This document shows, one piece after another, positions 7,356-24,435 of a stretch of 64,000 nucleotides of DNA. Source of the DNA: Alkalispirochaeta sp. (GTDB lineage: Bacteria; Spirochaetota; Spirochaetia; DSM-27196; Alkalispirochaetaceae); NCBI GenBank assembly GCA_965242725.1, contig CBDESZ010000031.1, positions 88,721 through 152,720 of the forward strand, read 5' to 3'. Under the pieces are notes generated by a model, which saw only the letters and a list, made by a program, of their open reading frames with translations, had not been told where the DNA came from and did not search any database. Position numbers and translations under genes: made by a program. Each line of letters starts with the position of its first letter. Position 1 is the stretch's first letter.

Positions 7356-8372
7356 ATGGCCTCATTTCCGCTGGCCGTTCCGTCCGGGCGGACACGCGAC
7401 TGTGTCACCTTTGGAAGGGCCAACATGGACCTCTATACCCAGAGTGGTCGCTCCATAGAGGAAACGCCGGTATTTGCCAAATCGGTCGGCGGTACTCCTG
7501 CGAATATCGCCGCGGCGATGGCGCGTCTCGGCATGAAAGTGGGTATGATTACCCGCGCCGCCGCCGATCCCATCGGCCGTTTTGTCGTTGAGTCGCTGCA
7601 GCGGCTGGGTGTCGATACGTCGCACATCGTCTTTGATCACAGCGGCGCCCGCACGAGCATCGCCTTTGCCGAGACGCGGAGCGCCGGTTCAAATACGGTT
7701 CTCTACCGGAATAACGCGGCCGATCTTCTCGTTAACCCGACGGACATTGATGCAGAGTATATCCGGTCAACGGCGATGCTCCTCCTTTCCGGTACGGCGT
7801 TATCTGAGTCCCCGTCGCGGGACGCAGCGATGCTCGCGGTAGGCATTGCCCGGAAAGCCGGAACGCTTATTGCACTGGATATTGACTTCAGACCCTACTC
7901 GTGGCGCAACCGCGAGTCGGCGTCGGTTGCCCTCATGTTTGCGGCGGAATCCTGCGACATCGTGATCGGTACCAGGGAGGAGTTTGACGTACTGGAACTG
8001 GTCTACGGAAATGACGCTATCGCCGACAGAGACCGGGACGCCTTAACCGCGCGGCGCCTGATTGAGGCCGGAAACTCCGTCGTCGTCGTGAAACGGGGAG
8101 AGGATGGATCCACCGCATACACTGCAACGGGCAGGACGGTACAAGGACCGGTGTTTCCCGTCGTCCCGGCAAAGGTGTACGGAGCCGGAGACGCCTTTGC
8201 AGGCGCGTTGCTCGCACGTCTCCTAGTTGGTGCTGAACTCGACGAGGCTTTGACGGCGGGAGCGGCAAACGCTTCAATAAATATTTCCAGAACCCGGTGC
8301 GCCGAAGATATGGCCACATGGGAAGAACTTGTACAATTCATCAAGGAGAAGAACTATGCCGTATCACATTAG
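7356..8372 (+). CDS. iolC: 5-dehydro-2-deoxygluconokinase (PfkB family)
   Basis: GRANMDLY, GGTPANIA, YRNNAAD, LDIDFRP, GAGDAF. Confidence 0.9.
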   Translation: MASFPLAVPSGRTRDCVTFGRANMDLYTQSGRSIEETPVFAKSVGGTPANIAAAMARLGMKVGMITRAAADPIGRFVVESLQRLGVDTSHIVFDHSGARTSIAFAETRSAGSNTVLYRNNAADLLVNPTDIDAEYIRSTAMLLLSGTALSESPSRDAAMLAVGIARKAGTLIALDIDFRPYSWRNRESASVALMFAAESCDIVIGTREEFDVLELVYGNDAIADRDRDALTARRLIEAGNSVVVVKRGEDGSTAYTATGRTVQGPVFPVVPAKVYGAGDAFAGALLARLLVGAELDEALTAGAANASINISRTRCAEDMATWEELVQFIKEKNYAVSH

Positions 8373-9201
8373 GCCTTATAACAATGAGAACAGGCCGGTT
8401 ATCGATGTAGACAACAACTGGACGCCCCTGATCTATTTCAACGACATACGTCTTGCTTCGGGTATGTCCTATTCCCATCGCCTGGAAGAACACGAGTCTG
8501 TCTGTGTGGTTGTATCGGGTACGGTACATATAGAGGTTGAAGGCGTCAGATTTGAAAGTGTGGGAAAGAGGGAACATCTCTGGGCCGGCAAGCCTGATTC
8601 GGTATATGTACCGCCCGGGTTCAAAGCGACAATCACCGCGGCGGGTGACGGCGCCGAGGTCTTCGTTGCCGGCGGGCAAACGGGAGGTGGCAAAGAACCA
8701 TTTCGGGTTACACCTGATGATGTCGATACCGTCCAATATGGAAGCGACGACACCAAGACGCACCGTCGTATTTACCACATCCTCGGAAAAAACGTTGAAG
8801 GGCACACGGGGAACCTTCTTGTAAGTGAGCTTTTTACCGTCGGAGCGGGAGGGTGGTCGGGATTTCCGCCGCACAAGCATCACATCGAACGACCGCCGGT
8901 GGAAAGCGATTTTGAGGAGGCATTTCACTACCGCTTTAACCCTGATCACGGATTCGGTGCGCAGTTTGCGTATATCGGCGATGACGATTTCGGGCCTGTA
9001 TACCATGTAAAACACGGGAGTACCATTCTGCTTGATAAGAGTTACCATCCCTCCGTTGCAGCGCCGGGCTATGAGATGTACTACTTTACGATCCTTGCGG
9101 GACGTAACCGACGCTCCCTGATTCAATATTTCCACCCCGATCATGAGTACCAGGTCCATACCATCCCGGGGCTCAAAGACATGATCGCAAAGTTCAAGTA
9201 G
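8356..9201 (+). CDS. iolB: 5-deoxy-glucuronate isomerase (copy 1)
   Basis: KduI/IolB cupin: WSGFPPHKH, EEAFHYRF, YHPSVAAPGY; start set at ATG 8356 after RBS. Confidence 0.85.
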   Translation: MPYHIRPYNNENRPVIDVDNNWTPLIYFNDIRLASGMSYSHRLEEHESVCVVVSGTVHIEVEGVRFESVGKREHLWAGKPDSVYVPPGFKATITAAGDGAEVFVAGGQTGGGKEPFRVTPDDVDTVQYGSDDTKTHRRIYHILGKNVEGHTGNLLVSELFTVGAGGWSGFPPHKHHIERPPVESDFEEAFHYRFNPDHGFGAQFAYIGDDDFGPVYHVKHGSTILLDKSYHPSVAAPGYEMYYFTILAGRNRRSLIQYFHPDHEYQVHTIPGLKDMIAKFK

Positions 9202-9217
9202 TAAAGGAGACAACGAT

Positions 9218-10231
9218 ATGCAGGAAGTCAGACTCGGAATCGTCGGCCTCGGTCGACTGGGCAAACGGCACGCGGAAAACCTGCGTTATCGCGTACCGGG
9301 AGCACAACTCGTTGCGGCGTGTAGCGTCGTACCTGATGAACTCGATTGGGCGAGAACCAAACTGGGTGTGAAAAAGACTTACGATTCCTACGACGAAATG
9401 CTCGGCGACGATGAGGTTGATGCGGTCTTTCTCGTCTCTACCTCGAGCGTCCATGCAGAGCAGATTATGGCGGGACTCGCGGCGGGAAAACACGTTTTTT
9501 CGGAAAAACCGATGGGCGTCACTATCGAGGAGTGCCTCGAAGTGGAACGGGCCGTCGCCTCGGCTCCCGAGCTCCATTTCCAGCTCGGTTTTGTCCGCCG
9601 CTTTGATCCGAGCCTCGCATACGCCAAGCAAAAGATTGACGAGGGCGCTATCGGTGAACCCTTCCTCGTTCGGGCCCAAACGGTCGATACAGATGAATTT
9701 GCTGAGTTTCAGATAAAATTTGTACCCACATCGGGCGGAATCTTCATGGACATGAACTCCCACGACATCGATCTTGCGCGCTGGTTCATCGGGGCGGAAA
9801 TAAAGAGCGTCTACGCGATTGGCGGGAGCTATGTGCATCGAGGTTTTGCAGAGGTGAACGACGCGGACAACACCGTTGCGCTCTGCCGGTTTGAAGACGG
9901 GAAGATGGCCGTCATTTCGGCGAGCCGTACCGCGTTTCACGGCCACGATACGCACACCGAGATAACCGGTTCCAAAGGAATTCTCAAGATCGGTATGACC
10001 CCTTCAAAAAATCGCGTGGAAATATTTGATACTGAAGGCGCGCGTGTCGAGTGCGTCCAGGACTTTTTTGAACGATTTCACGAGGGGTTCCTTCTGGAAG
10101 CGCAGAGTTTTGTAAGCGGAATCATGAACGGAGTCAAGCCCTCGATTTTTGCGACCGACGGGACAAAGGCGACGGAAGTGGGGTTTGCCCTGACAAAATC
10201 ATTCAAGGAGAACAGGGTCGTCGAATTGTGA
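9218..10231 (+). CDS. Gfo/Idh/MocA inositol dehydrogenase (IolG/IolX-like)
   Basis: GLGRLG, VFSEKP, GFVRRFDP, SGGIFMDMNSHDID. Confidence 0.88.
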   Translation: MQEVRLGIVGLGRLGKRHAENLRYRVPGAQLVAACSVVPDELDWARTKLGVKKTYDSYDEMLGDDEVDAVFLVSTSSVHAEQIMAGLAAGKHVFSEKPMGVTIEECLEVERAVASAPELHFQLGFVRRFDPSLAYAKQKIDEGAIGEPFLVRAQTVDTDEFAEFQIKFVPTSGGIFMDMNSHDIDLARWFIGAEIKSVYAIGGSYVHRGFAEVNDADNTVALCRFEDGKMAVISASRTAFHGHDTHTEITGSKGILKIGMTPSKNRVEIFDTEGARVECVQDFFERFHEGFLLEAQSFVSGIMNGVKPSIFATDGTKATEVGFALTKSFKENRVVEL

Positions 10232-11259
10232 CACTGAAAGATATTGCACAACTCGCAGGAACCAGTGTTGCCACCGTATCGCGCAGTCTGAATGACAGCC
10301 ATCTTGTCGCGGATGAGACGAGGCGAAGAATCAAGGCAATAGCGGCAGAACATGGCTTCGAGTTCAATGCAAGTGCCCGCGGCCTCGTTACGAGAACGAC
10401 CGGTACGATCGGCGTTATTCTCCCTGAGAACTACGACCGATTTGATGTATTGCTCTACCATGCGGCGCTGCATAACGATTTCCGGATGAGTCTGGAACGG
10501 GCAGATAAGGATATGATTGTCGCGTTTCTGACGAATCGTTTCAGCGGGCTTCGGAACGTTGAAAAACTCGTTATGCGCAAGAAAGTAGACGGGCTGATTA
10601 TCGTTCAGTCGGCCATTGATCAGGAGACGGTGCGGTATCTCAGGCGACGGAACGTACCGTTCGTCATGACCCAGTATCCTCCCGCCGAACCGGATCCGGA
10701 CTACGACGTGGTCTATTCCGACAACTGGACGGGGGGCAAGCTGGTTGCCGACCACTTTATTGAACGAGGCTTTTCCTCATGTGCATGTATCACCGGCGGT
10801 GACGAGGCGCAGTCACGGCAGCGTCTCGCCGGCTTTCTGGACACCATGTCCGCCCACGGAATCACCGTTCCCGATGACCTGATTCTGACCGGAGACTTTC
10901 AGAGCGATACGGCGGTACGTCTGGTCAGAGAACATCTCGACAAACTACAGGGAGTTGAGGCACTTTTTGCGGTCAATGATCTTATGGCGTTTGGCGCGAT
11001 GCAGATACTGCAGGCGTCGGGGCGGCGCGTACCCGACGACATCGCCGTCGTCGGGTATGACGATACGCCCCTCGCGGAAATCACGTTACCCGGTCTTACC
11101 TCTGTTCACCAGTCCCGGGAGGAGATCGCGTTACTCGCGTGTCAGCTCCTCCTTGAGCGCGTCGAGGAGTATGTGGACGAACCTGCCCGGTATCACGAGC
11201 ACCGGGCGATTGCGATCCAGCCGCGCCTGATCGTCCGGGAAAGCTCGCACGGACGATAA
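10228..11259 (+). CDS. LacI-family transcriptional regulator
   Basis: TLKDIAQLAGTSVATVSRSLN HTH; VPDDIAVVGYDD; LIVRESS C-terminus. Confidence 0.95.
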   Translation: MTLKDIAQLAGTSVATVSRSLNDSHLVADETRRRIKAIAAEHGFEFNASARGLVTRTTGTIGVILPENYDRFDVLLYHAALHNDFRMSLERADKDMIVAFLTNRFSGLRNVEKLVMRKKVDGLIIVQSAIDQETVRYLRRRNVPFVMTQYPPAEPDPDYDVVYSDNWTGGKLVADHFIERGFSSCACITGGDEAQSRQRLAGFLDTMSAHGITVPDDLILTGDFQSDTAVRLVREHLDKLQGVEALFAVNDLMAFGAMQILQASGRRVPDDIAVVGYDDTPLAEITLPGLTSVHQSREEIALLACQLLLERVEEYVDEPARYHEHRAIAIQPRLIVRESSHGR

Positions 11260-11296: not shown

Positions 11297-12286
11297 TCAT
11301 AGATTTGCCTCCGACAGGGCGGCCAGACCGGATGCGGTTAATCCGTTCTCCTTGAGGAGGAATGCGTGGTCGCCCAGTTTCTGGAACTTGTCGCCCAGAC
11401 TTGCCATGACCTGTCGGGGTGCATTGGAGAAACCCGCCTTGTACTCGGCGACTGCGCTGCCGAGTCCACCTATGGGTGAGTGCTCCTCAACCGTTACAAC
11501 GAGCCTGTTTTCCGCAAATACGGAATCGAGCATGTCGGTATCCAGAGGTTTTACCGTGTGCATATCGATTACACGTGTCGAAATACCCCTGGACTCAAGG
11601 ATCTCCGCCGCGCCGACGGATTCAGACAGGAGAGAGCCGCAGGAGATCAACGCGACATCGGTACCCTTTCGGTATTCGATAGCTCTTCCTATTTGAAAAT
11701 CAAAATCGTCCTGGTACATCACCGGAAAGCCGGGTCCTCCGGTCAGTCGGATATATACCGGTCCATCGTGATCGGCGGCGGCACGTAACGCTTTGTGAAC
11801 CGTCAGCGGATCAGACGGCGCAATGACGGTAAAGTTGGGAATTGCCCGGGTCACAGCTATGTCATCCATCGCATAGTGTGTATTGCCAAGAGGGCCGAAG
11901 CGGACACCCGCCTCAATCGAGACAACTGTGGCTTTCAGATTCATATAGGCGAGGGTGTCCCGCATCTGCTCGGCAGTGCGCATAGGCACGATCGCCGCGA
12001 GGGCAACGGCAAACGGCAGTATTCCCTCGACGGCGAGGCCCGCGGAAAAATCGATAAGGTTTTGCTCTGCGATACCGACGTCAAAAAACCGATCAGGATA
12101 GGTGTCTCTGAATCCGGTGAGTCTGGCGGTAGGGGTGAGGTCGGCCGTTACGGTGACCATTTCCGGCCGTTCAGCGGCGAGCATCACCAGGGTGTCGCCC
12201 AATACATTTCGATGGCCCAGGCGGGACCACTCCTGCAGTTGTTCTGCAGACACCTTTGTCATAGCAGCTTCTCGGCCGTCATTCAT
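11297..12286 (-). CDS. Split transketolase, C-terminal (pyrimidine-binding) subunit
   Basis: DVGIAEQN, GPVYIRL, VKPLD, VEEH; non-canonical GPLGNTHY in place of GEDGPTHQ. Confidence 0.92.
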   Translation of the reverse strand: MNDGREAAMTKVSAEQLQEWSRLGHRNVLGDTLVMLAAERPEMVTVTADLTPTARLTGFRDTYPDRFFDVGIAEQNLIDFSAGLAVEGILPFAVALAAIVPMRTAEQMRDTLAYMNLKATVVSIEAGVRFGPLGNTHYAMDDIAVTRAIPNFTVIAPSDPLTVHKALRAAADHDGPVYIRLTGGPGFPVMYQDDFDFQIGRAIEYRKGTDVALISCGSLLSESVGAAEILESRGISTRVIDMHTVKPLDTDMLDSVFAENRLVVTVEEHSPIGGLGSAVAEYKAGFSNAPRQVMASLGDKFQKLGDHAFLLKENGLTASGLAALSEANL

Positions 12287-13115
12287 CGTTGAGCTCCTTC
12301 ATCGCCGTCTCGTAAAATTCTTTTGGTAATGATCGGGCATGCCATTCCAGGCTGTCCTCCATAAAGGAGATTCCTTTACCTTTTGTGGTGTCGGCGATAA
12401 TCACACGGGGTTTTTCACTTACTGCGTCTCTCATTTTCCTGAGAGCATCGATAACGTCGGACACCGAGTTTCCATGGCGTACTACCAGAACATCCCAACC
12501 GGCTGCGCCCCAGAGCGCCTCGATATCGATGTTCATGATTTCCTTTGTCTTACCGGCCAGTTGAACACCATTGCGGTCAACGATCGCTACCAGGTTGTTC
12601 AGCTCATTCTTTGCGGCGTTCATCGCCGACTCCCAGACGAGGCCCTCGTTGCATTCTCCGTCGCCGACAAGACAAAAGATGTTGTGCGTTTCACCTTTCA
12701 TCTTCGCCGCTTTTGCCATTCCGCAGGCGACGGAAAATCCGTGTCCCAGAGATCCGGAGGAGATTTCGATACCGTATTGCACGTTGCGGCTCGGGTGTCC
12801 TGATAGAAAACTGCCGTCGGCCTTAAAGGTGTACATTTGCTCCCTGGTGATATATCCGCTTTCCACCAGTGCGCTGTAGTAGGAAAGACATGCGTGTCCT
12901 TTGCTTTGGACAAACCGATCCCGTTGCGGCCACCGGGGATTCCCGGGATCGTGGTTCATAATGCCAAAAAAAAGTCCGGCTACAATCTCAATACTGGAGA
13001 GGGCGGGTCCAAAATGGGCTCCCCGGTCGCCGGCGACGTAGCCCATTTCAATGACGTTCCGACGCATCTTCCGTGTAATGTCTTCAATCCGTGTAATCGT
13101 CGCTTGATCGACCAT
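12279..13115 (-). CDS. Split transketolase, N-terminal (ThDP-binding) subunit
   Basis: HFGPALS, RDRFVQSKGHA, SGSLGHG, GDGECNEG, KGKG..ME...WH. Confidence 0.93.
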   Translation of the reverse strand: MVDQATITRIEDITRKMRRNVIEMGYVAGDRGAHFGPALSSIEIVAGLFFGIMNHDPGNPRWPQRDRFVQSKGHACLSYYSALVESGYITREQMYTFKADGSFLSGHPSRNVQYGIEISSGSLGHGFSVACGMAKAAKMKGETHNIFCLVGDGECNEGLVWESAMNAAKNELNNLVAIVDRNGVQLAGKTKEIMNIDIEALWGAAGWDVLVVRHGNSVSDVIDALRKMRDAVSEKPRVIIADTTKGKGISFMEDSLEWHARSLPKEFYETAMKELNDE

Positions 13116-13137
13116 TATATGATTCTCCTTGTTTCGT

Positions 13138-14028
13138 TTATCTTTGTTCCGCAATGGTGTAGAGATGCCCGCTGTAACGTCCCATTGGTATCACTCTGGC
13201 TTGTTCCCGGGCGAGTTCAATCAACCGGGGGACAGCCACCCCTGTGGTGTAGCCCATTTCCGACAACATGAATGCGAGGTCTTCTGTCGCCAGGTTTCCC
13301 GACGCACCTGGCGCAAAGGGACATCCTCCCAGCCCGCCTAATGTGGACTGGACCTTTCGGACGCCCCGTTCAATTGCGGCGAGGGTATTGACCATTCCCA
13401 TGTTGCGGGTGTCGTGAATATGAATCTGGAGATCCAATGACGGGTACTCCGCCTGGAGTGCGTCGATCGTTTCTCGCACCTGGGCGGGGTTTGCGATGCC
13501 GATCGTGTCGCAGAGCGTTACCGACGTGATCCCGCTTTGCACGTACGGCTTAAGAAAGGGTATGACGTCTTCAGGACCCTTTTTCCCTTCAAAGGGACAA
13601 CCGAATGAGGTCGCCAGGTCGAGTCCGACCTCGAGATCGGGGAGGGTGTCCCGTATCCCCGACAGTTCCGCGAAGGATTCCCCATGGAATCGCCGGGTAT
13701 TGGCGCGATTATGACTTTCACTGACGGATACGACAAAGGAAACCCATCTCATGCCCGAATCCCACGCCGCCTGTGCTCCCCGCAAGTTGGGAACCAGGGC
13801 AAACAGGTCGGCATCGGGATATTTTTCGATACATCTTTCCGTCAGCTCCCGGGCGTCTTTCATCTGGGGAACGGCCCTGGGGCTCACAAAGGAGGTGATT
13901 TGAAGATGTTTCAATCCGGAGGCGATCAGCCCGTCGATTATGCGAAGCTTGGTTTCCAGTGGAATGTATTCATCAACGTTCTGGAATCCGTCGCGGGGTC
14001 CGACTTCATAGAGTTCGACCGTCTTCAT
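13138..14028 (-). CDS. Hydroxymethylglutaryl-CoA lyase family protein (DRE-TIM)
   Basis: EVGPRDGFQN, HIHDTRNMG, GLGGCPFAPGASGNLATED. Confidence 0.93.
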   Translation of the reverse strand: MKTVELYEVGPRDGFQNVDEYIPLETKLRIIDGLIASGLKHLQITSFVSPRAVPQMKDARELTERCIEKYPDADLFALVPNLRGAQAAWDSGMRWVSFVVSVSESHNRANTRRFHGESFAELSGIRDTLPDLEVGLDLATSFGCPFEGKKGPEDVIPFLKPYVQSGITSVTLCDTIGIANPAQVRETIDALQAEYPSLDLQIHIHDTRNMGMVNTLAAIERGVRKVQSTLGGLGGCPFAPGASGNLATEDLAFMLSEMGYTTGVAVPRLIELAREQARVIPMGRYSGHLYTIAEQR

Positions 14029-15490
14029 TCCGTTTCTCCATCATCGATCCACTCTCCTTGAGTCTCCGGTACCAGGCAAAGGCTTCTTCCGGAAGCTGTG
14101 GGTGGTGGCCGCCACAGTGTCGGCGGGCATTCTGAAGGTACGACGACAATTGATCGCGGTACGAGTCGGAAGCACATCGTGCAATAATCGCGTCCGATCG
14201 CTCGTGGTCATCCAGGCCGCGCAGATCCGCCACGCCATTCTCGGTTACGACGATATCGACGTCGTGCTCACCGATATCCTGGTGGGATACCATGGGCACG
14301 ATATTGGAAATCGCACCGCCTTTTGCCGTGGAGGGAATGAGAATTACCGAGAGAGCTGCGTTCCGGGCAAAGCCCGCTCCGCCGCCGATGCCGTTCACCA
14401 CCCGGCTGCCGGCGATATGACTCGAGTTTACGTTCCCATAGATATCAATTTCGATACCGGTATTAAGGGCAACCACGCCGAGGCGACCGACGACCTCCGC
14501 ACTGTTGGTGATATCGCCATTGCGAATTACAAGGTGGTTGTGAATTTCCGGTATGTCCCGGAGGATTTCTTCAACCCGTTCGCTCATTCCCAGCCCACCG
14601 GTAGAAAGGGCGGTTGCCTTTCCCGACGCCAGAAGTTCCATAACCGGCTCAGTAATTCCGCCACAGAAAAATTGCAGGTCATGGAACGCCGATTGACGGA
14701 AGGCATCGACAACGGAATCGGCGATACTCCCGAAACCGGTCTGAATCGGCGGAAGGGTATTGCCGAGATTCCGGTATTCTCCTTCCAGGAAGGTGAAGAG
14801 ATGATCGGCGATACGCTTTGTGAGGGAAGTACCCTTCGGGGGCGTTCCCAGGCGTTCCGGTATGTTGGTTTCCACGACATGGGAAATCCGGTTCCAATCA
14901 ACCGGAATTCCACCGCTGCCGATGCGCTCATTGACTCGGGTAAGAGGAATCGGCCTGGTGTACGGCGGTGCCAGGGGAATGTACACGTCATGTAACGATT
15001 TGAGCTTCTTCGGCTGTGCCGCATTTATTTCGACGATAATCTCATCCGCCGCCGCGGTGAGGTAGTGCGTCATGCCGACGGAGCTGGTCGGGATCAGGTT
15101 GTTCTCGTCGTCAAAGCCCAGGGCTTCGACGACGGCGATATCTATTCTGCCGAAGTTGCCGTCCCGGAGCATTCGCGGCATGTTACACATCTGCTGCTCC
15201 ACGTACCGCACCGATCCTCTGTTTGTCTGAGACGCCAGTGTCTTGTCGGCGACCATCGGCGTCCGTCGTGCGATAATTTCCGCCGCGGCGAGTTTTTCAT
15301 CGAGCCAGGGTACGTTGGCACCGGTAAGGAGATTGATAGACAGCTCTTCTCCCCCCTTTTTTCGTGCCGTCAGTTCCTCCACAACTGCTTTTGGATAACC
15401 GGCCATGGCGTAACCACTCATCGCGACGGTCATTCCGCTTCGGATGGTTGCGACGGCCTCCTGTGCGGTCGAAATATCTATATTCCTCAT
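14006..15490 (-). CDS. Acetyl-CoA hydrolase/transferase family CoA-transferase (succinate CoA-transferase-like)
   Basis: AGYPKAV, EIDIYGNVNSSH, NGIGGGAGFARNA, IVPMVSH, VVTENGVADLRGL, GHHPQ. Confidence 0.9.
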   Translation of the reverse strand: MRNIDISTAQEAVATIRSGMTVAMSGYAMAGYPKAVVEELTARKKGGEELSINLLTGANVPWLDEKLAAAEIIARRTPMVADKTLASQTNRGSVRYVEQQMCNMPRMLRDGNFGRIDIAVVEALGFDDENNLIPTSSVGMTHYLTAAADEIIVEINAAQPKKLKSLHDVYIPLAPPYTRPIPLTRVNERIGSGGIPVDWNRISHVVETNIPERLGTPPKGTSLTKRIADHLFTFLEGEYRNLGNTLPPIQTGFGSIADSVVDAFRQSAFHDLQFFCGGITEPVMELLASGKATALSTGGLGMSERVEEILRDIPEIHNHLVIRNGDITNSAEVVGRLGVVALNTGIEIDIYGNVNSSHIAGSRVVNGIGGGAGFARNAALSVILIPSTAKGGAISNIVPMVSHQDIGEHDVDIVVTENGVADLRGLDDHERSDAIIARCASDSYRDQLSSYLQNARRHCGGHHPQLPEEAFAWYRRLKESGSMMEKRNEDGRTL

Positions 15491-15510
15491 GGGTACCCTT
15501 GGACGATTTC

Positions 15511-16923
15511 TCACGACCGCGGCGTGAACCCGGAGAACAGCTCTTCATCCGATGGTTCGTGGTTGGGTATTTCCCGGATGACCCATGTATTGTTCATGTA
15601 ATGTTTGAGAGCAATGTTCTCCGACGCGATGTTTCCGCCCCAGGTGCCGCAACCAAGGGAACTGGTAAAGGGCATTCCGCTGACCCAACTCCCCGTATTG
15701 GTCGCGCCCTGGGGCAGGTTCACGACGACACGAGTGGTATAGGTTCTTTCTGCGACTTTCGTCACGTTCTCCGTGGTATTGGAAAATATTCCGCACGAGT
15801 GGCCGGCCCCTGAAGAGGCGTGATTCTCGTTTATTATTCGTATTGCATCGTCGATTCCCGTGCTTTTGTAGACAGTCGTGACGAGACTCATTTTTTCTCC
15901 GGCAAACGGAGTTGAATCGCCGGTAACGTCCTCTTCGACCAGCAGAAACGATGTCCCTTCGGGAACGTCAATACCTGCAATTTCCGCGATATTCCTGACC
16001 GACGATGCGACGATATCGCGATTTATGACGCGACTATCAGGCCACTCGGGCCAGATTGCCTTTTTCAGTTTTTCTTTTTCATCCGAATTCAGGAGGTGGG
16101 CGCCGACCTTTTTAAACTCACCGAGCATGTCGGTGTACACTGATTCGTCGATGACGACGCTGTTATCGCATGAACAACCGGCGGCGAGGTCAAATGTCTT
16201 GCTGATCTTGATCTTGGCCGCAGCATCTGCGAGGTCCGCCGTCCGGTCAACCACGATGACGGAATTGCCGGCACCGACTCCGAATGCGGGTGTGCCTGAG
16301 CTGTAGGCGGCACGGACCATCTGGGCACCGCCCGTCGCCATAACCAAATCACACTGTTTCATGAGTTCGCCGGTTATCGGGACCGAAGGTTCTTTGATGG
16401 TTATGAACAGATCTTCCGGAGCGTCATACTTTTTCATCACGCCTCGAATGAGGTCAACGGTCTTGGTGGCGGTACCTTTGCTTCGCGGATGCGGTGAGAA
16501 GATTATGGCATCACGGGCCTTTACGGCAAATATCGCCTGTATGAGAGGATGCATCTCCGCCTGGGTACTTGGAACAAGTGAACCTATCACTCCCACCGGT
16601 TTTGTCAGTCTGACGAGTCCGCGCTCGGGTATCTCTTCTACAATGCCGACCGTCCTGACGTTCTTCACATCGTAAAAGACGCCGCGACATTTCACGGAGA
16701 CCTTGGTGAATTTTGACTGAACGTCACCGAGCCGACACTCCTCATAGGAGTACTCGGCAAGCTCCCTGACCAAGTTATCGTTGGCCGCAATTTCCCAGGT
16801 GATGGCTGCGGCAAGTTCATCCACCTTTGCCTGTGAGAATGTTTCAGCAATACGTTGCGCCTTCCGTGCCCGTTTCATCAACGCCGATACTATTGCCGCA
16901 GCGTCTGCTCGGTTTTGTTCCAT
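15511..16923 (-). CDS. CoA-acylating aldehyde dehydrogenase (ALDH-1)
   Basis: PVGVIGSLVPST, ATGG, GVGAGN, SKTFD...C, GEKMS, GHSCG, LGCGTWGGN. Confidence 0.9.
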   Translation of the reverse strand: MEQNRADAAAIVSALMKRARKAQRIAETFSQAKVDELAAAITWEIAANDNLVRELAEYSYEECRLGDVQSKFTKVSVKCRGVFYDVKNVRTVGIVEEIPERGLVRLTKPVGVIGSLVPSTQAEMHPLIQAIFAVKARDAIIFSPHPRSKGTATKTVDLIRGVMKKYDAPEDLFITIKEPSVPITGELMKQCDLVMATGGAQMVRAAYSSGTPAFGVGAGNSVIVVDRTADLADAAAKIKISKTFDLAAGCSCDNSVVIDESVYTDMLGEFKKVGAHLLNSDEKEKLKKAIWPEWPDSRVINRDIVASSVRNIAEIAGIDVPEGTSFLLVEEDVTGDSTPFAGEKMSLVTTVYKSTGIDDAIRIINENHASSGAGHSCGIFSNTTENVTKVAERTYTTRVVVNLPQGATNTGSWVSGMPFTSSLGCGTWGGNIASENIALKHYMNNTWVIREIPNHEPSDEELFSGFTPRS

Positions 16924-17012
16924 TTCTGCCTCCAACTTCCGTAAAGTACGAATTATGAAATTTCGTTCGAAGCGATATAGGCATCATATAGCTTTCTATC
17001 GGAATAGTAAAG

Positions 17013-17031
17013 TTTCGATTATATTTCGATT
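17013..17031. promoter_or_regulatory. Direct repeat TTTCGATT x2 (11-bp period), putative DeoR operator
   Basis: Lies in the AT-rich divergent intergenic region between ALDH-1 and DeoR. Confidence 0.45.
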
Positions 17032-17067
17032 GAAGAATATTAGGTTATGTTGTATCGTGTATATGCT

Positions 17068-17838
17068 ATGAAAGCTCAATCGATGAACCGGGTCGAAGAG
17101 ATCAGGACCCTTTTAAAGAGAAACGGTAAGGTCTATGTCGCGGACCTGAGCGCAGAGTTGGGTGTGAGCGAAGTATCAATACGGAAGTATCTGTCCAGAA
17201 TTGAACGGGAAGGGTTTGCAACACGATTTTATGGGGGTGCGGCGCTGAAAGATCCCGCTCCCGCAAACAACGCCTTGCAGGAAATCTACGATGATCCAAT
17301 TCGAACGGCCCTTGCCCGGGCAGCACGTAACCATGTTGTAGACGGTGATTCCATATTTGTCGGTTCCGGTAGGTCGTGTTGCGCCCTGGCCCACGAGCTG
17401 ACCGGGTTTACCGACCTGACCGTATTCACAAACAATATTACTGCCCTTCCGGAGCTTATTACCAACGCCTCACGGGTATATCTGATCGGCGGGGAAGTCA
17501 CCAGCACCGACAATCATACTTTGTTTTCGAGCTGGGAGTCGCCGCACGCACAAATGGAAAATATCTTCGTAAACAAGGCGTTTACAAGTGTGTCCGGAAT
17601 TGACCTGAAAGCGGGACTGACCGTTGATTCCGTTATCAGCACCCGTATTTTCAAACAGATACCCACGATGGCGCATCGCTGGTATTTGATTGCCGATGTA
17701 AAAAAGTTTGACAAGATTTCGATTTATCCCGTCGCGGAGCTCGAACAAATACACACATTAATCACCGACACACTCCCGGACCACTATGCAGAAAGACTTC
17801 GTGCGATTCGCGTCGAAATCGTTCAAAGTCCACGGTAG
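17068..17838 (+). CDS. DeoR/GlpR-family transcriptional regulator
   Basis: VADLSAELGVSEVSIRKYL HTH, YGGA, IFVGSG, VFTNN, KKFDK. Confidence 0.93.
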   Translation: MKAQSMNRVEEIRTLLKRNGKVYVADLSAELGVSEVSIRKYLSRIEREGFATRFYGGAALKDPAPANNALQEIYDDPIRTALARAARNHVVDGDSIFVGSGRSCCALAHELTGFTDLTVFTNNITALPELITNASRVYLIGGEVTSTDNHTLFSSWESPHAQMENIFVNKAFTSVSGIDLKAGLTVDSVISTRIFKQIPTMAHRWYLIADVKKFDKISIYPVAELEQIHTLITDTLPDHYAERLRAIRVEIVQSPR

Positions 17839-17851
17839 AAACCTCTTTCGT

Positions 17852-17898
17852 TTGACAGCTCCAGATTCCATGGATACAATGTTCTTATTATCAGACAA
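17852..17898 (+). promoter_or_regulatory. Sigma70 promoter TTGACA-N17-TACAAT followed by operator-like TTATTATCAGACAA
   Basis: -35 at 17852-17857, -10 at 17875-17880; the 14-mer at 17885-17898 recurs inverted at 23671-23684. Confidence 0.75.
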
Positions 17899-17939
17899 AT
17901 ACGACTCGTCGCTCGGGCGGTCGTACTTGAGGAGGCGTT

Positions 17940-18794
17940 GTGATCATACGGAGGAATGGGGAACCCTTTTCCCTTGGATATACTTCAATAACCGAGTTGG
18001 ACGGGAAAAACGGCGACATGCTCATGGACTTTGGTATTCTCAAACTCGCCGGCGGCGAATCCGTTTCCAGCGATGACCAAAAAGAACGGGCTTTCCTGTT
18101 AATGACCGGGAATGTCCGTTTTCAATGGAGCGACCCCGACGGACATCAGTCGGTTCAGATTACACGGAACAGCGTCCTCGATGAAGAGCCGACAGCCTTG
18201 CACGTGCCTGCGGGTGCCGACGTGACGGTGACGTGTATCGACGGGGAGGCAGAGATCGCGATACAGAAAGTCAAGAACTCCAAATCCTTCGCGCCCCGTC
18301 TCTGGCGTCCCGGAGACTACCGTTCAGACCGTTTTGGTGAAGGAACGCTTCAGGACACGAGCACCCGTACCGTTCGGACGATATTTGACGCTGCGACTGC
18401 ACCGGAAAGTGAAATGGTGCTGGGTGAAGTGATAAACCATCCCGGCAAGTGGTCCAGTTATCCGCCCCACGACCACGCCCAGCCGGAAGTGTATCACTAT
18501 CGGTTTTTTCCGAGTCATGGATGGGGCCACGCCGAGCAGGAAGATGATGTCTTTAAAGTCAAAAACGGCGACAGTTATGCTATTCCGCCAGGTGTGACCC
18601 ATTCGCAGTGTGCCGCTCCGGGATATACAATGTACTATATCTGGATGATTCCGCACCTTCCCGACGACCGTTTTGGTCCCGACTCGCGGATTTTTCGCAA
18701 GGAACACATGTGGGTTATGGATGGGGACGCTCCGATTTGGCCGGATGCGCCTCTCGAGACGGTTCTTGCGTATCAAACGAATCTTAAACGATAA
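17940..18794 (+). CDS. iolB: 5-deoxy-glucuronate isomerase (copy 2)
   Basis: GEVINHPGKWSSYPPHDHAQPEVYHYRF, HSQCAAPGY; TTG start after GAGGAGG. Confidence 0.85.
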   Translation: MIIRRNGEPFSLGYTSITELDGKNGDMLMDFGILKLAGGESVSSDDQKERAFLLMTGNVRFQWSDPDGHQSVQITRNSVLDEEPTALHVPAGADVTVTCIDGEAEIAIQKVKNSKSFAPRLWRPGDYRSDRFGEGTLQDTSTRTVRTIFDAATAPESEMVLGEVINHPGKWSSYPPHDHAQPEVYHYRFFPSHGWGHAEQEDDVFKVKNGDSYAIPPGVTHSQCAAPGYTMYYIWMIPHLPDDRFGPDSRIFRKEHMWVMDGDAPIWPDAPLETVLAYQTNLKR

Positions 18795-18815
18795 CATTGA
18801 CAAGATGAGGAGTAA

Positions 18816-20723
18816 GTGAAGGTGAAAACGGTACGATTGACGACCGCACAGGCGTTATTACGCTTTCTGGATAATCAGTATATCGAGGTTGACGGCGAAG
18901 AGACCAAATTTGTCGAAGGTATTTTCGGGATATTTGGCCATGGTAATGTCGTCGGCTTTGGCGAAGCAATTGTCGAGACAGAGCATAATTTGATATTCCG
19001 CCAGGGAAAGAATGAGCAGGCTATGGCGCACGCTGCCATTGGGTTTGCAAAGCAGAATAATCGGCGAAAAATCTATGCGGTTACCAGTTCGGTTGGTCCC
19101 GGTGCCTTGAATATGGTGACCGCCGCAGGGACCGCGACGGTGAATCGAATACCGGTCCTCTTTCTTCCCGGCGACACATACGCGGACCGACAGCCTGATC
19201 CGGTTCTTCAACAGGTAGAGCATGGGAACAATCCCAATATCACGGCGAATGATGCGTTTCAGGCGGTGAGTACCTATTGGGACCGCGTATCCCGTCCTGA
19301 ACAACTCATGAGTTCTCTGATTAACGCCATGCGTGTACTGACCGACCCGGCGGAAACCGGCGCGGTGACGATCGGCCTTCCTCAGGATGCCCAAGCGGAA
19401 AGTTACGACTATCCTGAAGAATTCTTCCGAAAACGCGTTCACCATGTCGAGAGGCGCCCGCTGACCGACAATGCGATCCAGCGGGCGGCGGAACTCATTG
19501 GAGCAAGCAGGAAGCCAATTATGGTCTGCGGCGGCGGTGTTCGCTACTCCGAAGCCGGCGATGTGTTTGCGGCGTTTGCGGAGGAGTTTGGTCTTCCTTT
19601 CGGTGAAACTCAGGCGGGGAAGGGCACCGTATCGTGGGATCATCCGTGGAATCTTGGTGGTATCGGCGTTACCGGCGGCGAGGCCGCCAATGTGATTGCG
19701 AAGGACGCCGATCTTCTTATAGCCGTGGGTACCCGTCTCGGTGATTTTACCACGGCAAGTAAGGGAGCTTTTCAGAACTCAGATTTAAAAGTGCTCACTA
19801 TCAATGCAAATAGATTTGACTCATATAAGATGGATGCAGAACCATTTGTGGCCGACGCCCGTATGGCGTTGACGCAGCTCGCTGAAGCCCTGAGGCACAA
19901 GAAGTACACCAGCGGATATTCCGATGAAGTACGCAAGGTTCGTGAAGCATGGAACGCTGAAGTCGACCGTCTCTATACAACGGATGATCCCGGTGGACTG
20001 AGTCAGACCCGCGTTCTGGGAGAGTTGAACGAGAAATTGCTGAATCCGGACGATGTGGTCGTCAGTGCTTCGGGCAGCCTTCCCGGAGACATGCAGCGCG
20101 TCTGGCGGCCTCGCCAACGCGATACCTATCATATGGAGTACGGTTTCAGTTGCATGGGATATGAGGTAAATGCCGCATACGGCGCCCAGATCGCAGCCCC
20201 CGACCGGAATGTGTACGCTCTTGTCGGCGACGGCGGATTTGTCATGCTGCACAGTGAATTACTCTCCGCGGTTCAGGAGGGCATTCCATTTACCATTATC
20301 CTCTTTGACAACCATGGCTTTCAGGTTATCGATAACCTGCAAACCAACCAGGGAATATCCAGTTATGCCAATGAGTGGCGGAAACGGACCACCGATGCGG
20401 TGAAATCGACAGTTCCACCCTACGGAGGGCACGATAGAAAGCTTCTGGGCGAGTATCTGGAAGTTGATTACGCCGGAATCGCGGCAGGATATGGTGCCAT
20501 CGGCATCACGGTTCGAACAATTGAAGAGCTTGCCGAAGCGATCAGGTCAACCCGAAACGTCGGACGACCGGTGTTGATTGATGTGAAAGTCACACAGAAA
20601 TCGATGACTCACGGCTACGAAAGCTGGTGGCGCGTCGGCGTACCGGAAGTATCGGCAAGTACCAAGGTTCAGGAAGCCCGCAAGGACCTGGACGACCATA
20701 TGGAGACCGCCCGGAAGTTCTGA
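18816..20723 (+). CDS. iolD: Trihydroxycyclohexanedione acylhydrolase (copy 2)
   Basis: GIFGHGNV, RQPDPVLQQ, YHMEYGFSCMGYE, WWRVG; clear paralogue of 5486..7354. Confidence 0.95.
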   Translation: MKVKTVRLTTAQALLRFLDNQYIEVDGEETKFVEGIFGIFGHGNVVGFGEAIVETEHNLIFRQGKNEQAMAHAAIGFAKQNNRRKIYAVTSSVGPGALNMVTAAGTATVNRIPVLFLPGDTYADRQPDPVLQQVEHGNNPNITANDAFQAVSTYWDRVSRPEQLMSSLINAMRVLTDPAETGAVTIGLPQDAQAESYDYPEEFFRKRVHHVERRPLTDNAIQRAAELIGASRKPIMVCGGGVRYSEAGDVFAAFAEEFGLPFGETQAGKGTVSWDHPWNLGGIGVTGGEAANVIAKDADLLIAVGTRLGDFTTASKGAFQNSDLKVLTINANRFDSYKMDAEPFVADARMALTQLAEALRHKKYTSGYSDEVRKVREAWNAEVDRLYTTDDPGGLSQTRVLGELNEKLLNPDDVVVSASGSLPGDMQRVWRPRQRDTYHMEYGFSCMGYEVNAAYGAQIAAPDRNVYALVGDGGFVMLHSELLSAVQEGIPFTIILFDNHGFQVIDNLQTNQGISSYANEWRKRTTDAVKSTVPPYGGHDRKLLGEYLEVDYAGIAAGYGAIGITVRTIEELAEAIRSTRNVGRPVLIDVKVTQKSMTHGYESWWRVGVPEVSASTKVQEARKDLDDHMETARKF

Positions 20724-20974: not shown

Positions 20975-22357
20975 TCACTTTCCGTACGTTTCCCAATGTT
21001 TCCCGAATATTTTGTTTTCGTCGGGGATTACCGGAGGTATTGGTTTTGAAACCCACGTTACATTACGGAAGTGCCAGTACGATATGTTCTCTGAGGTGAT
21101 ATTTCCTCCCCATGAACCACATCCAAGGGTGAGTGAAAAGGGCATACCGTTGTCGTAGTTGCCGCTATTGGCCGCACTTTGGGCCTGGCGTACCATGATA
21201 CGGCTCACCGGAGCTTTCATTGCGAGTTCTTCCACTCGATCGTCCCTGGTTGTGTGAATACCGCATGAATGGCCGTAGCCGGAAAACCCGGTGATGTCCT
21301 TGACGTACTGGATCGCCTTTTGAAAACCGCTGTACTTCCAGAGGGTCATCACGACCGAAAGTTTCTCACCGGCAAAAAGCTCGTCTGGACCTACTTCTGA
21401 TGCCTCCACCATGATAAACCGTGTTTCGGGCGGCACGGAAAATCCGGCAAGTTCCGCAATTTTGGGCGCCGGTTGCGCAACGATCGCCCTGTTGAGCGCG
21501 TGCCCGTCTGGCCACATGGTGCGTTTCAGTTTTTCTTTTTCCTCGGGGCTGCAGAGATATCCATTGAGCTTCCGGAACTCCTCGAGCATTGTATCGTAAA
21601 TGGTCGATTCTATGACGACCGAATTTTCGCTGGAGCAGCTCGTGGCGTTGTCAAAGGTTTTACCCAGAAAAATTTTCTTTGCGGCATCTTCCAGGTCCGC
21701 CGTTTCATCGACAATAACCGTGGCGTTACCCGCGCCGACGCCATAGGCTGGTGTACCGCTGGAATAGGCCGCCTTGACCATACCGGGGCCGCCGGTGGCG
21801 ACTACGAGGTCAACGGCCGCCATCAATTCCTGGGTCAGTTGCACTGAGGGTTCCTCAATCCACTGTACCAGGTCTTCCGGGCCACCCATTTTTCTGATAC
21901 CGTCCCGGAGTTTCTGCGCTGCGAGACCGGAACAACCCTTACCGCTCGGATGCGGCGCAAAAATCACGGCATTTCGGTTTTTAAGGATCGACAGTCCGTT
22001 ACAACCAACTGATGAAGTGGGATTTGTGACCGGAATGAGCGCACCGACGACACCAACGGGCTTGATTACCTTCATGAGTCCCTTTTCGGGGATTTCCTCA
22101 AGAATACCGACAGACTTTACGCCGTCGAGATCCCGCAGTGTTCCGAGAATTTTCTTCTGATGCTTGAGCAGTTTATCTTCGTATACGCCGAGCTTTGTCT
22201 CTTTATGGGCGAGGGTTGCACATTCAACGGCGCTCTCCTTTTTGTAGACTTCCCAACCCGCTGCCGCAACGAGCTCGTCGATTTGTTCCTGCGACCAGGA
22301 ATCCACTATTTTCTGGGCCGCCCGGGCGCGGGCCAGTTTTTCCTGAATGATACTCAT
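20975..22357 (-). CDS. CoA-acylating aldehyde dehydrogenase, SauS (sulfoacetaldehyde dehydrogenase)-like (ALDH-2)
   Basis: PVTNP, GVGAGN, KTFDNATSCSSENS, GEKLS, DNGMPFSLTLGCGSWGGN. Confidence 0.9.
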   Translation of the reverse strand: MSIIQEKLARARAAQKIVDSWSQEQIDELVAAAGWEVYKKESAVECATLAHKETKLGVYEDKLLKHQKKILGTLRDLDGVKSVGILEEIPEKGLMKVIKPVGVVGALIPVTNPTSSVGCNGLSILKNRNAVIFAPHPSGKGCSGLAAQKLRDGIRKMGGPEDLVQWIEEPSVQLTQELMAAVDLVVATGGPGMVKAAYSSGTPAYGVGAGNATVIVDETADLEDAAKKIFLGKTFDNATSCSSENSVVIESTIYDTMLEEFRKLNGYLCSPEEKEKLKRTMWPDGHALNRAIVAQPAPKIAELAGFSVPPETRFIMVEASEVGPDELFAGEKLSVVMTLWKYSGFQKAIQYVKDITGFSGYGHSCGIHTTRDDRVEELAMKAPVSRIMVRQAQSAANSGNYDNGMPFSLTLGCGSWGGNITSENISYWHFRNVTWVSKPIPPVIPDENKIFGKHWETYGK

Positions 22358-22441
22358 GTTCATACTCCTCAATAACACGCGCGCGACCGGCTGCCGATGG
22401 CGACAAATCGCGAGCGTTCATAATCCTATTGCGTTATCCGG

Positions 22442-23530
22442 TTATTTGTCCGGATTTGGAACCATAAGGTCACGGATGATACGGCAGAGTTCGTCGTACC
22501 CGCCGATGAACTGTCTGAGCGTACGCGCCGTTGCACCATACGAGTCAAATTCTTCCGGTTTCATACCGTCCGGTTCATATGCCCGTCGGAAGTCGACAAA
22601 CTTCTTAGAGAGTTCTTTCACGATCGCCGGGTCAACCGGAGTGTGAATCCGGTCCCTGCGGTCCTTTACGGTCACATCGGATTCGTTAAACCGTTTTGCC
22701 CATTTGTACGGGATTGTACAAACGACGTCACCACCGATGAACTCTGACCAGTGATAGTGGTTGCGATATGCAGCCGCCAATAGACGTGTGCGATATCCGC
22801 GCTCTTCATATATCCGGTACGCGTTCTTGAACACCGCAACACCCGCCCACTCCAGGTAGTCCGCGTTGGTGATAATATTTTCCTTATTGGCAATTACTTT
22901 CAGCCAATCGTCCGTGCGTCCGACCATAATTGTACACACCGGCGCCATCGTTGAGATGTCGTGTCCGTCCGCTTCTCGGCGCGTTAATCCCCGTTCCACC
23001 GCTTCGGCGACGGCAATCGCCTGAGGCGCGGTAAATGACACCGTCGCGTTTACGCTCACTCCGTAATACGTTGCCTCTTCGATAGCTTTTACACCCGCCT
23101 CGGTGACCGGCATTTTCACGTTGAGATTAGGGATGACCTCGGCAAAATGGAGAGCCTGTTTTACCATTGCGTCGGCGTCACGGTAAAACTTGGCGTTGGT
23201 TTGCATGGAAAGTCGGCCTTTTTTGCCGTTTGTTGCCTTGAATGTCGGCTCCAGGAGCTTTGCCGCTTTCACGGCCATCTCGTCTATCAACTTCCAGGCA
23301 ATGTCGTCTTCCGTTGCGGTGGGCATTTCCGTGATAAGATCCCGGATTCTGCCCTCCCAGGCGGCGTAGTCTTTTTGAAGCACATTTACCACAATCACGG
23401 GATTGGTCGTAGCCCCTACCGCGCCATGTTCAATTCCATATTCCAGTTCGGAAATAGAACTGGAATCATTCCAATAATCGGTCGGTGTGGTCTCGCTCAT
23501 CTCGTGCAGCGGACTTTTAAAGTCGCCCAT
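22442..23530 (-). CDS. Transaldolase-family protein (WNDS-type)
   Basis: YWNDS, GATTNP, NVKMPVT (Schiff-base Lys), VNATVSF, MVGR. Confidence 0.88.
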   Translation of the reverse strand: MGDFKSPLHEMSETTPTDYWNDSSSISELEYGIEHGAVGATTNPVIVVNVLQKDYAAWEGRIRDLITEMPTATEDDIAWKLIDEMAVKAAKLLEPTFKATNGKKGRLSMQTNAKFYRDADAMVKQALHFAEVIPNLNVKMPVTEAGVKAIEEATYYGVSVNATVSFTAPQAIAVAEAVERGLTRREADGHDISTMAPVCTIMVGRTDDWLKVIANKENIITNADYLEWAGVAVFKNAYRIYEERGYRTRLLAAAYRNHYHWSEFIGGDVVCTIPYKWAKRFNESDVTVKDRRDRIHTPVDPAIVKELSKKFVDFRRAYEPDGMKPEEFDSYGATARTLRQFIGGYDELCRIIRDLMVPNPDK

Positions 23531-24420: not shown

Positions 24421-24435
24421 GTCTTTCTCACCTCC

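Follow-up and report, generated by a model that had tools for sequence, protein, structure and literature searches.

In Bacillus subtilis, IolG, IolE, IolD and IolB yield 2-deoxy-5-keto-D-gluconate (DKG), and DKG 6-phosphate serves as inducer, as outlined in PMC3176187. Lower inositol catabolism is taught as one route, via IolC, IolJ and IolA, in which an aldolase cuts between C3 and C4 after phosphorylation and the products are dihydroxyacetone phosphate, acetyl-coenzyme A (acetyl-CoA) and CO2. We analyzed a stretch of 64,000 nucleotides from Alkalispirochaeta sp. (contig CBDESZ010000031.1, positions 88,721 to 152,720; hereafter the window), which holds homologues of the same four upper enzymes and of IolC. 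Next to them lies a minus-strand operon at 11297-16935 encoding an aldehyde dehydrogenase (ALDH1), a CoA-transferase, a lyase of the 3-hydroxy-3-methylglutaryl-CoA (HMG-CoA) lyase family and the two halves of a split transketolase (together, the module). Our tentative reading is that this operon is a phosphorylation-free lower branch of inositol (cyclitol) catabolism acting after IolD and IolB. In contrast to the canonical route, a transketolase would cut unphosphorylated DKG between C4 and C5, and the branch would yield a C2 ketol together with acetyl-CoA and glyoxylate. We infer all substrates and products of this branch, and we are more confident of the narrower statement, that the operon has a part in cyclitol catabolism, than of the full scheme.

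Two published systems are precedents for the logic of the module. In the sulfo-transketolase (sulfo-TK) pathway, the split transketolase SqwGH passes ketol units from a sulfosugar to glyceraldehyde 3-phosphate, and in some clusters the leftover aldehyde is oxidised through a CoA ester, as outlined in PMC9594981. An initial annotation of this DNA had worded the substrates of that pathway as ketose acids; according to PMC9594981 they are sulfosugars. The likeness, drawn from the published description, lies in a split transketolase and a non-phosphate anion at the far end of the sugar. In the module, however, that anion would be a carboxylate, only one cut would be expected, and the place of a CoA ligase is taken by a CoA-transferase and a lyase. 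The second precedent is an unconfirmed proposal, set out in PMC7970118, that a housekeeping transketolase cleaves 5-keto-D-gluconate into a C2 unit and a C4 semialdehyde acid, followed by a step resembling succinate-semialdehyde dehydrogenase. The module transketolase differs in being dedicated, in having a rebuilt site and in lying within a catabolic operon, and its predicted substrate is the 2-deoxy analogue.

Two further systems recall single parts of the module. The HMG-CoA lyase family includes (R)-citramalyl-CoA lyase, which in Chloroflexus works with a succinyl-CoA:D-citramalate CoA-transferase. By description, both there and here an HMG-CoA-lyase-family enzyme would cleave an (R)-2-hydroxy-dicarboxylyl-CoA supplied by a neighbouring CoA-transferase. 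The module differs in that its transferase is a class I enzyme of AarC/Cat1 type, the acid would arrive as a CoA ester on the wrong carboxyl, and the predicted substrate carries no methyl group. Clostridium kluyveri has the succinate/4-hydroxybutyrate enzymes Cat1, SucD and 4HbD. Likewise, ALDH1 matches a SucD-type structure (8cei), the CoA-transferase matches succinyl-CoA:acetate transferases, and a transketolase-free trio related to the module adjoins an iron alcohol dehydrogenase. Here, in contrast, the reactions would run in the oxidative direction, and the extra lyase would be sensible only with a hydroxylated C4 skeleton, that of malate and not succinate.

The operon and its linkage to inositol genes

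Genes were called from an open reading frame (ORF) listing with Pfam and NCBIfam scans of 26 window ORFs, and Pfam scans of 54, and these confirm every gene that the initial annotation had named. In order of transcription, the minus-strand module encodes the CoA-acylating ALDH1 (15511..16935; 459 bits on the SauS model NF047625, cut-off 600), a class I CoA-transferase of the succinyl-CoA:acetate type (AcetylCoA_hydro; 14006..15514; 486 bits on the ScpC model NF053853, cut-off 500) and the lyase, a predicted (R)-malyl-CoA lyase (13138..14028; PF00682, 127 bits; NF004283, 252 bits, cut-off 246). These are followed by the N-terminal, thiamine pyrophosphate (TPP)-binding transketolase subunit (12279..13154; PF00456, 153 bits) and the C-terminal subunit with the Pyr and C domains (11297..12286; PF02779, 98 bits; PF02780, 89 bits). 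The five genes overlap by 4 to 23 bases and therefore form one operon. ALDH1 probably starts at the ATG at 16923, which has a GGAGG 5 nt upstream.

A control region of 123 bp (16924..17046) separates ALDH1 from three divergent genes on the plus strand. They encode a DeoR-family regulator (17047..17838; PF00455, PF08220), the divergent KduI/IolB-family isomerase IolB2 (17940..18794; PF04962, 180 bits; TIGR04378, 90 bits, under the cut-off of 205) and a second ring-opening hydrolase, IolD2 (18816..20723; TIGR04377, 899 bits, cut-off 715). IolD2 is 60% identical to the window's IolD1, and IolB2 is a distant paralogue of IolB1 (27%). The control region contains two direct repeats of ~30 nt, candidate DeoR operators, from which DeoR would control both the operon and iolB2-iolD2. 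The cores of these repeats are conserved in two relatives, G411 (same genus) and G407, which also carry DeoR orthologues, 67-70% identical, in the same position. On its other side the module adjoins an iol operon under LacI control.

Relatives of the lyase were collected from species genomes, from metagenomes and from the window's order, and the window proteins were then mapped onto each locus. The genome and metagenome scans gave the best 80 loci each, mostly distant lyases at 38-47% identity, and at least ten module loci come from them. At GC-rich loci all long ORFs were scanned with Pfam, since picking the longest ORF gave spurious calls. The five genes occur in the same order at at least 14 loci, at 57-80% identity and in several phyla. 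The hosts are Gemmatimonadales, Acidimicrobiia and Sphaerochaeta assemblies and three further genomes of the window's order, the remainder being metagenome contigs. Within the window's own phylum the operon is rare and patchy: no lyase orthologue at E <= 1e-60 was found in 400 other genomes sampled from the phylum. In the order, matches to the lyase at that threshold occur in 8 of 99 genomes, counting that of the window, and only 4 of these have 71% identity or more; the operon is carried by 4 of the 99.

Usable flanks are available at nine of the listed module loci, five others being too short to show neighbours. Among the matches listed, an IolD and/or IolB homologue lies within ~12 kb at eight of these nine: the window, G411, G407, G452, the Acidimicrobiia locus L011 (where the IolD-like gene adjoining the module is read in three frames), the Sphaerochaeta contig L012/L182, L093 and L097. 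The initial annotation had named this linkage beforehand as a check, and homologous operons at these eight loci are indeed tied to iolD/iolB. The closest tie is seen in G452, a genome of another family of the order, in which iolE-iolD1-iolB1-ALDH1-CoA-transferase-lyase-transketolase follow each other on one strand, with 88 bp before ALDH1 and no iolC. Its iolE-iolD1-iolB1 genes are 68-76% identical to the window's first set, and the module occupies the position normally held by iolC, iolJ and iolA. On the Sphaerochaeta contig, a series iolB2-iolD2-iolE-Gfo-iolE-ABC on one strand leads into the five-gene operon.

Whole-genome searches agree with the local linkage. IolD-family genes are present in all six module-bearing genomes, the window's included; in the five others searched, four matches exceed the cut-off and the fifth is the frameshifted copy beside the module. 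In these five genomes, no IolC match over the cut-off was found in three (G452, G497 and G498), no class II aldolase match in three, and DUF2090 in none. Likewise, IolA was not found in any of the four spirochaete module genomes, including the window's own.

The upper enzymes IolG, IolE, IolD and IolB are all represented in the window, IolE and IolB1 falling below their NCBIfam cut-offs yet being clear Pfam members. The plus-strand iol operon (2490-11259) runs iolG1, a TIM-barrel gene, iolE, iolD1, iolC, iolB1, an iolG2-like gene and lacI. It encodes the inositol 2-dehydrogenase IolG1 (2490..3482; TIGR04380, 430 bits, cut-off 355), an IolE-like inosose dehydratase (4579..5475; TIGR04379, 202 bits, cut-off 290; PF01261), the ring-opening TPP hydrolase IolD1 (5486..7354; TIGR04377, 911 bits, cut-off 715) and IolB1, of the 5-deoxyglucuronate isomerase family (8329..9201; PF04962, 238 bits; TIGR04378, 170 bits, cut-off 205). 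An IolG2-like dehydrogenase (9218..10231; TIGR04380, 326 bits, under the cut-off of 355) and the LacI-family regulator of this operon (10228..11259; PF00356, PF13377) complete it. The initial annotation described this region as having neither iolJ nor iolA, which holds, but it overlooked iolC (7356..8372; TIGR04382, 334 bits, cut-off 300), a 5-dehydro-2-deoxygluconokinase gene that is kept though no iolJ was found.

In the window's own genome, which is 91.8% complete, none of ten matches to the IolA model TIGR01722 (methylmalonate/malonate semialdehyde dehydrogenase) reaches the cut-off of 448.5, the best scoring 327 bits. No iolJ was found there either: the genome has a single class II aldolase (PF01116), on another contig, and no DUF2090. 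G411 carries an iolJ-like class II aldolase between iolB1 and the iolG2-like gene (L178 4384-5199). At the same position the window has a spacing of 16 bp (9201-9218) and no gene, and no homologue of that aldolase was found in the window's genome. These closely related genomes thus differ in keeping the canonical aldolase.

The module enzymes and the reactions they would catalyze

The module transketolase appears catalytically intact, with its anion site rebuilt. In an alignment of 22 sequences, the TPP-binding GDG...N motif and conserved histidines, which we take to be catalytic by their counterparts in E. coli transketolase, are kept in all 13 module orthologues. In contrast, the canonical sugar-phosphate site is not retained: in 12 of 12 orthologues His is replaced by Glu, Asp by Leu, and the second Arg by Gly together with a one-residue insertion. 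One Arg of the distal site is kept, Ser becomes Thr, and new arginines appear elsewhere (12 of 12 again). The motifs T-H-D-S, G-E-D-G and L-T-R-Q of the genome's canonical transketolases read I-E-A-G, G-P-L-G and L-T-G-G-P in the module, and the two canonical enzymes retain all phosphate-site residues. Going by work on transketolases of E. coli, yeast and humans, the missing His and Arg are presumably residues that bind the substrate phosphate, and the missing Asp presumably one that reads the 2-hydroxyl of the aldose.

The nearest solved relatives of ALDH1 in the PDB are AdhE (276 bits) and the acylating succinate-semialdehyde dehydrogenase SucD (8cei, 275 bits). Those of the CoA-transferase include 2g39 (375 bits) and AarC, a succinyl-CoA:acetate CoA-transferase (4eu3, 312 bits); the enzyme stays under the curated equivalog cut-offs of both NF053853, as above, and TIGR03458 (496 against 659 bits). 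SucD and the succinyl-CoA:acetate CoA-transferase both act on a C4-dicarboxylate skeleton, and we count these matches in favor of the proposed branch.

The lyase matches HMG-CoA lyases in the PDB at 154-215 bits. An Arg-Asp pair, a His-x-His motif and a Cys are invariant in 21 aligned orthologues, and we take them to match the catalytic residues of human HMG-CoA lyase. In a FastTree phylogeny of 162 homologues, every one of the 13 lyases linked to a transketolase belongs to a single clade (SH-like support 87), which itself lies within a clade of 33 rows (support 95). Some members of the larger clade adjoin class III CoA-transferases together with carriers of the citrate, DASS or TRAP type, and in some cases aconitase-like, PrpF or PrpD genes; a class III CoA-transferase lies within 4 kb of 72 of the 162 collected homologues. 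Other members adjoin homologues of ALDH1 and of the CoA-transferase, an iron alcohol dehydrogenase and a TRAP carrier. This transketolase-free trio is found at L013/L094/L096 and L127, and its iron alcohol dehydrogenase scores 227 bits on the 4-hydroxybutyrate dehydrogenase model (cut-off 500). L013 and L127 belong to gut or rumen Clostridiales, and L013 also has a 2-hydroxyacid dehydrogenase and a glycerate kinase. The trio could serve in the use of a dihydroxy acid, for example 3,4-dihydroxybutyrate. This transketolase-free arrangement suggests that dehydrogenase, transferase and lyase form a unit that takes an aldehyde acid from different sources. At the nine flanked module loci the annotated neighbours are without exception genes for sugars, cyclitols or CoA transfer, no search having been aimed at leucine-catabolic genes.

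In the proposed branch, IolD and IolB would make DKG (5-dehydro-2-deoxy-D-gluconate), whose keto end would match xylulose 5-phosphate in its D-threo ketol configuration, a carboxylate replacing the phosphate; that DKG 6-phosphate can be cleaved by an aldolase implies the same configuration. The split transketolase would then transfer the C6-C5 unit from DKG to an acceptor aldose that is probably glyceraldehyde 3-phosphate. The predicted leftover is D-malate semialdehyde (3-hydroxy-4-oxobutanoate), a carboxylate look-alike of glyceraldehyde 3-phosphate, which ALDH1 and CoA would turn into (R)-malyl-CoA with the thioester on the hydroxyl-adjacent carboxyl. Since the lyase family needs a 3-hydroxyacyl-CoA, the CoA must change carboxyl, and this would give the CoA-transferase its role, the shift proceeding via free D-malate or via acetate. 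The lyase would split the resulting 3-hydroxyacyl-CoA into acetyl-CoA and glyoxylate, and the glyoxylate would probably be reduced to glycolate. Glyoxylate-reductase-type genes, a possible sink, lie near the lyase in G452 (GhrA-like, 311 bits), L011 and L013.

The stereochemistry is consistent with this scheme. As stated in PMC6689899, the substrates of CitE-type lyases are (S)-citramalyl-, (S)-malyl- and (R)-HMG-CoA, whereas the TIM-barrel family acts on (S)-HMG-CoA. By our own derivation from the priority rules, (S)-HMG-CoA corresponds spatially to (R)-citramalyl- and (R)-malyl-CoA. The stereoseries of the lyase family would thus be the (R) configuration left by transketolase cleavage of DKG, so that the family fits the enantiomer delivered.

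A sister route in relatives points in the same direction. In G411 and G407, DeoR-iolB2(-iolD2), 77-84% identical to the window's, runs straight into a second array. It comprises another split transketolase, with 33-38% identity to that of the module, a GAPDH of type II, a paralogue of PGK and one or two tartrate/D-malate dehydrogenases. The GAPDH is of the phosphorylating, archaeal type (416 bits, cut-off 185). Two tartrate/D-malate dehydrogenases (472 and 491 bits, cut-off 470) are seen in G411 only, the G407 contig ending inside the PGK paralogue. The same transketolase-GAPDH-PGK-dehydrogenase array occurs in G471, a genome of another family. The arrays of these relatives lie at L177 4506-14322, L181 269-5585 and L201 3-5034. 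Furthermore, Sphaerochaeta has the array's GAPDH (76% identical) after iolG-iolB2-iolD2-iolE, on the strand opposite to the series that leads into the module. The array was not found in the window's own genome. A chain of transketolase, GAPDH, PGK and D-malate dehydrogenase is what would be expected if the cleavage product resembles glyceraldehyde 3-phosphate and ends as D-malate.

A broader view, which we consider possible but doubtful, is that these clusters form a shadow of the pentose-phosphate pathway and glycolysis working on carboxylates, with DKG in place of xylulose 5-phosphate and D-malate semialdehyde in place of glyceraldehyde 3-phosphate. In such a system D-malate semialdehyde would be oxidised either by the type II GAPDH and the PGK paralogue, giving ATP and D-malate, or by the window's CoA route with an (R)-malyl-CoA lyase as its last enzyme. 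Dedicated transketolases, perhaps also the paired transaldolase-like enzyme described below, would handle DKG. As to the core scheme itself, the sequence of transketolase cleavage, CoA ester, CoA shift and release of acetyl-CoA and glyoxylate had been put forward in the initial annotation, and the iol linkage, the position in G452, the stereochemistry and the sister route all favor it; its extension to C-methyl-inositols gained no support.

Points against the scheme and alternative substrates

Several observations weigh against the scheme. The linkage counts include kin: three of the loci belong to one genus and a fourth to the same order, which leaves about six independent lineages. The flanked locus L010 has no iol gene in the 7 kb upstream, where a lactonase, a kinase resembling xylulokinase and an ABC carrier for sugars are found; its genome carries IolD on another contig. 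L097 has a true IolC-family kinase in the module's operon (363 bits, cut-off 300). This kinase may serve a parallel canonical route or make the 6-phosphate inducer; 6-phosphorylated DKG cannot be a transketolase donor, and the scheme therefore has no need of it. The Asp missing from the transketolase could mean that the aldehyde partner has no 2-hydroxyl. To our knowledge, the only enzyme known to shift CoA from one carboxyl of a dicarboxylate to the other is a class III transferase, and no such shift is known for this class I family. No malate synthase was found in the window's genome, and that enzyme was dropped as a candidate sink for glyoxylate. No glyoxylate-reductase gene stands beside the window operon, the genome having 16 unlinked D-2-hydroxyacid-dehydrogenase matches over the cut-off.

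A different reading is that the module serves sugar acids in general, its tie to inositol reflecting the clustering of carbohydrate islands and its substrate being a ketose acid from uronate, aldonate or deoxy-sugar-acid catabolism. The operon at L010, beside a lactonase, a kinase and a carrier and away from iol genes, would fit such a role, as would a rhamnonate-dehydratase-like gene, a DHDPS-family aldolase and SDR genes near L097. IolB belongs to the KduI family of uronate isomerases, and other clusters with transketolase paralogues exist in the window's genome (contigs C6, C11 and C14). We nevertheless regard this explanation as unlikely, given the IolD and/or IolB homologues at eight of the nine flanked loci among the matches listed, spread over at least four lineages, the fusion of the operon behind iolB in G452 and the IolD-family genes in six of six module-bearing genomes. 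We know of no role for IolD outside cyclitol ring opening.

Alternatively, the same enzymes may act with the same logic on a non-deoxy 5-keto-aldonic acid, either 5-keto-gluconate formed from a doubly oxidised inositol via IolD2 and IolB2 or an imported sugar acid. Tartrate semialdehyde would then be converted to tartryl-CoA and on to glycolyl-CoA and glyoxylate. Tartryl-CoA is already 3-hydroxylated, so no CoA shift would be needed; the CoA-transferase would merely recover CoA, and the second IolB/IolD pair would gain a purpose. A substrate with a tartrate skeleton would also fit most of the evidence, which is a further point against our scheme. Transketolase cleavage of 5-keto-D-gluconate to tartaric semialdehyde is the very step proposed for tartaric acid synthesis, as outlined in PMC7970118. 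The window also contains many Gfo/IolG paralogues and a Zn-dehydrogenase whose best match is scyllo-inosose 3-dehydrogenase (167 bits, cut-off 450). The sister-route dehydrogenases score as tartrate dehydrogenases, but this match does not discriminate, since tartrate dehydrogenase also decarboxylates D-malate. In contrast, genes for IolE-type dehydratases are found with the operon in G452, L093 and L011 and on the Sphaerochaeta contig, pointing to the dehydrated, deoxy series, and IolD2 scores as a full IolD (899 bits). We hold the non-deoxy substrate to be unlikely in much the same degree as a general sugar-acid role.

It is quite improbable that only a dehydrogenase serves inositol, with ALDH1 and/or the second acylating dehydrogenase of the window, ALDH2, replacing IolA (malonate semialdehyde to malonyl-CoA or acetyl-CoA) after IolC and some aldolase, and with transketolase, lyase and CoA-transferase serving otherwise. 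Both dehydrogenases match best, below its cut-off, the model of sulfoacetaldehyde dehydrogenase, whose substrate is shaped like malonate semialdehyde, and no IolA was found in the four spirochaete genomes. Moreover, iolC is kept in the window and in G411, which has the iolJ-like aldolase inside its iol operon. However, three of five overlapping and co-conserved genes would be left without a role, no homologue of the aldolase of G411 was found in the window's genome, and G452, G497 and G498 have the operon and IolD without an IolC match over the cut-off.

Least probable is a branch for C-methyl-inositols (laminitol, mytilitol), which the initial annotation had offered as the explanation of the IolB/IolD paralogues and in which the transketolase product would be methylated and the lyase would be an (R)-citramalyl-CoA lyase releasing pyruvate. 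Such a lyase does occur in the family, the aconitase-like, PrpF and PrpD neighbours in the adjoining lyase clade would fit citramalate-type substrates, and a dedicated divergent IolB2/IolD2 pair exists. Yet this second pair is explicable without a methyl substrate, no methyl-specific enzyme is present and no sequence feature requires a methyl group. Furthermore, the operon in G452 is fused to iolE-iolD1-iolB1 of the canonical type, the sister route ends in tartrate/D-malate and not citramalate dehydrogenases, and the diverse hosts (spirochaetes, Acidimicrobiia, Gemmatimonadales and others) have no evident tie to algal or mussel cyclitols. A role in sulfoquinovose use was rejected, as Pfam scans of 54 window ORFs, in which no dedicated models were used, gave no sulfoquinovosidase, sulfoquinovose isomerase or RpiB/SqwI-type isomerase.

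Neighbouring genes and biological significance

Convergent to iolD2, on the minus strand, lie two genes that are absent from the initial annotation. They encode ALDH2 (20975..22378; NF047625, 542 bits, under the cut-off of 600), which is 45% identical to ALDH1, and a divergent transaldolase-like protein (22442..23530; PF00923, 154 bits; NF002881, 119 bits, under the cut-off of 367). Homologues of the latter occur in 32 of 99 genomes of the order and are far commoner than the operon. ALDH2 lies directly beside the transaldolase-like gene in 9 of 11 other loci fetched, with a GntR regulator seen in 5. The pair usually has a GntR regulator of its own. A second, transaldolase-type cut of DKG by this pair, giving malonate semialdehyde, is no more than a possibility; its substrate may be a different sugar acid, and it may belong to a separate system. 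Two out-of-frame carboxyl-transferase fragments (PF01039, 124 and 31 bits) are found on the plus strand at 23725-24448, between the transaldolase-like gene and a polyol cluster. They are probably a decayed gene; an intact enzyme of this kind could decarboxylate malonyl-CoA.

The polyol/sugar cluster (24998-33378) encodes the Zn-dehydrogenase, an SDR, a mannitol-dehydrogenase-family enzyme, an FGGY kinase and an ABC carrier. Further along, at 41165-51057, is a type I restriction-modification system (HsdM, HsdS, NucS-like, HsdR); the opposite strand there carries two ORFs of unknown family (45928-47717). To the left of the window the inositol region goes on along the same contig (C31, ~69.7-86.3 kb), with an iolG-like gene, two further genes resembling iolE (57% and 46%) and a GntR regulator that shares 54% identity with the one beside the G452 operon. 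Elsewhere in the genome, non-canonical transketolase paralogues stand beside a second transaldolase-like gene (57% identical) on C11 and beside a tartrate-dehydrogenase-like gene on C14. C6 has a stretch of 30 kb with a gene resembling type II GAPDH (38%), a dehydrogenase gene and a transketolase gene.

Among open-access PMC papers and bioRxiv preprints we found no link of a transketolase or CoA lyase to inositol catabolism; subscription papers could differ. The proposed branch is a variant of known catabolic logic, the route itself not having been found described. If true, it would bring in a transketolase able to use a carboxylate sugar acid and an (R)-malyl-CoA lyase activity, for which we know of no described enzyme, and it would make glyoxylate or glycolate a fermentation product of inositol. 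The shadow system, if true, would amount to two new lower inositol pathways needing neither IolC, IolJ nor IolA. Since public data contain at least 119 clusters of lyase relatives with an identity of 67% or above, the branch is probably not the curiosity of a single genome. Inositols and the breakdown products of phytate are abundant carbon sources in soils, sediments and guts. In all six module-bearing genomes searched, the canonical lower enzymes are partly or wholly missing and IolD is present, and pathway-prediction tools would score such genomes as non-users of inositol.

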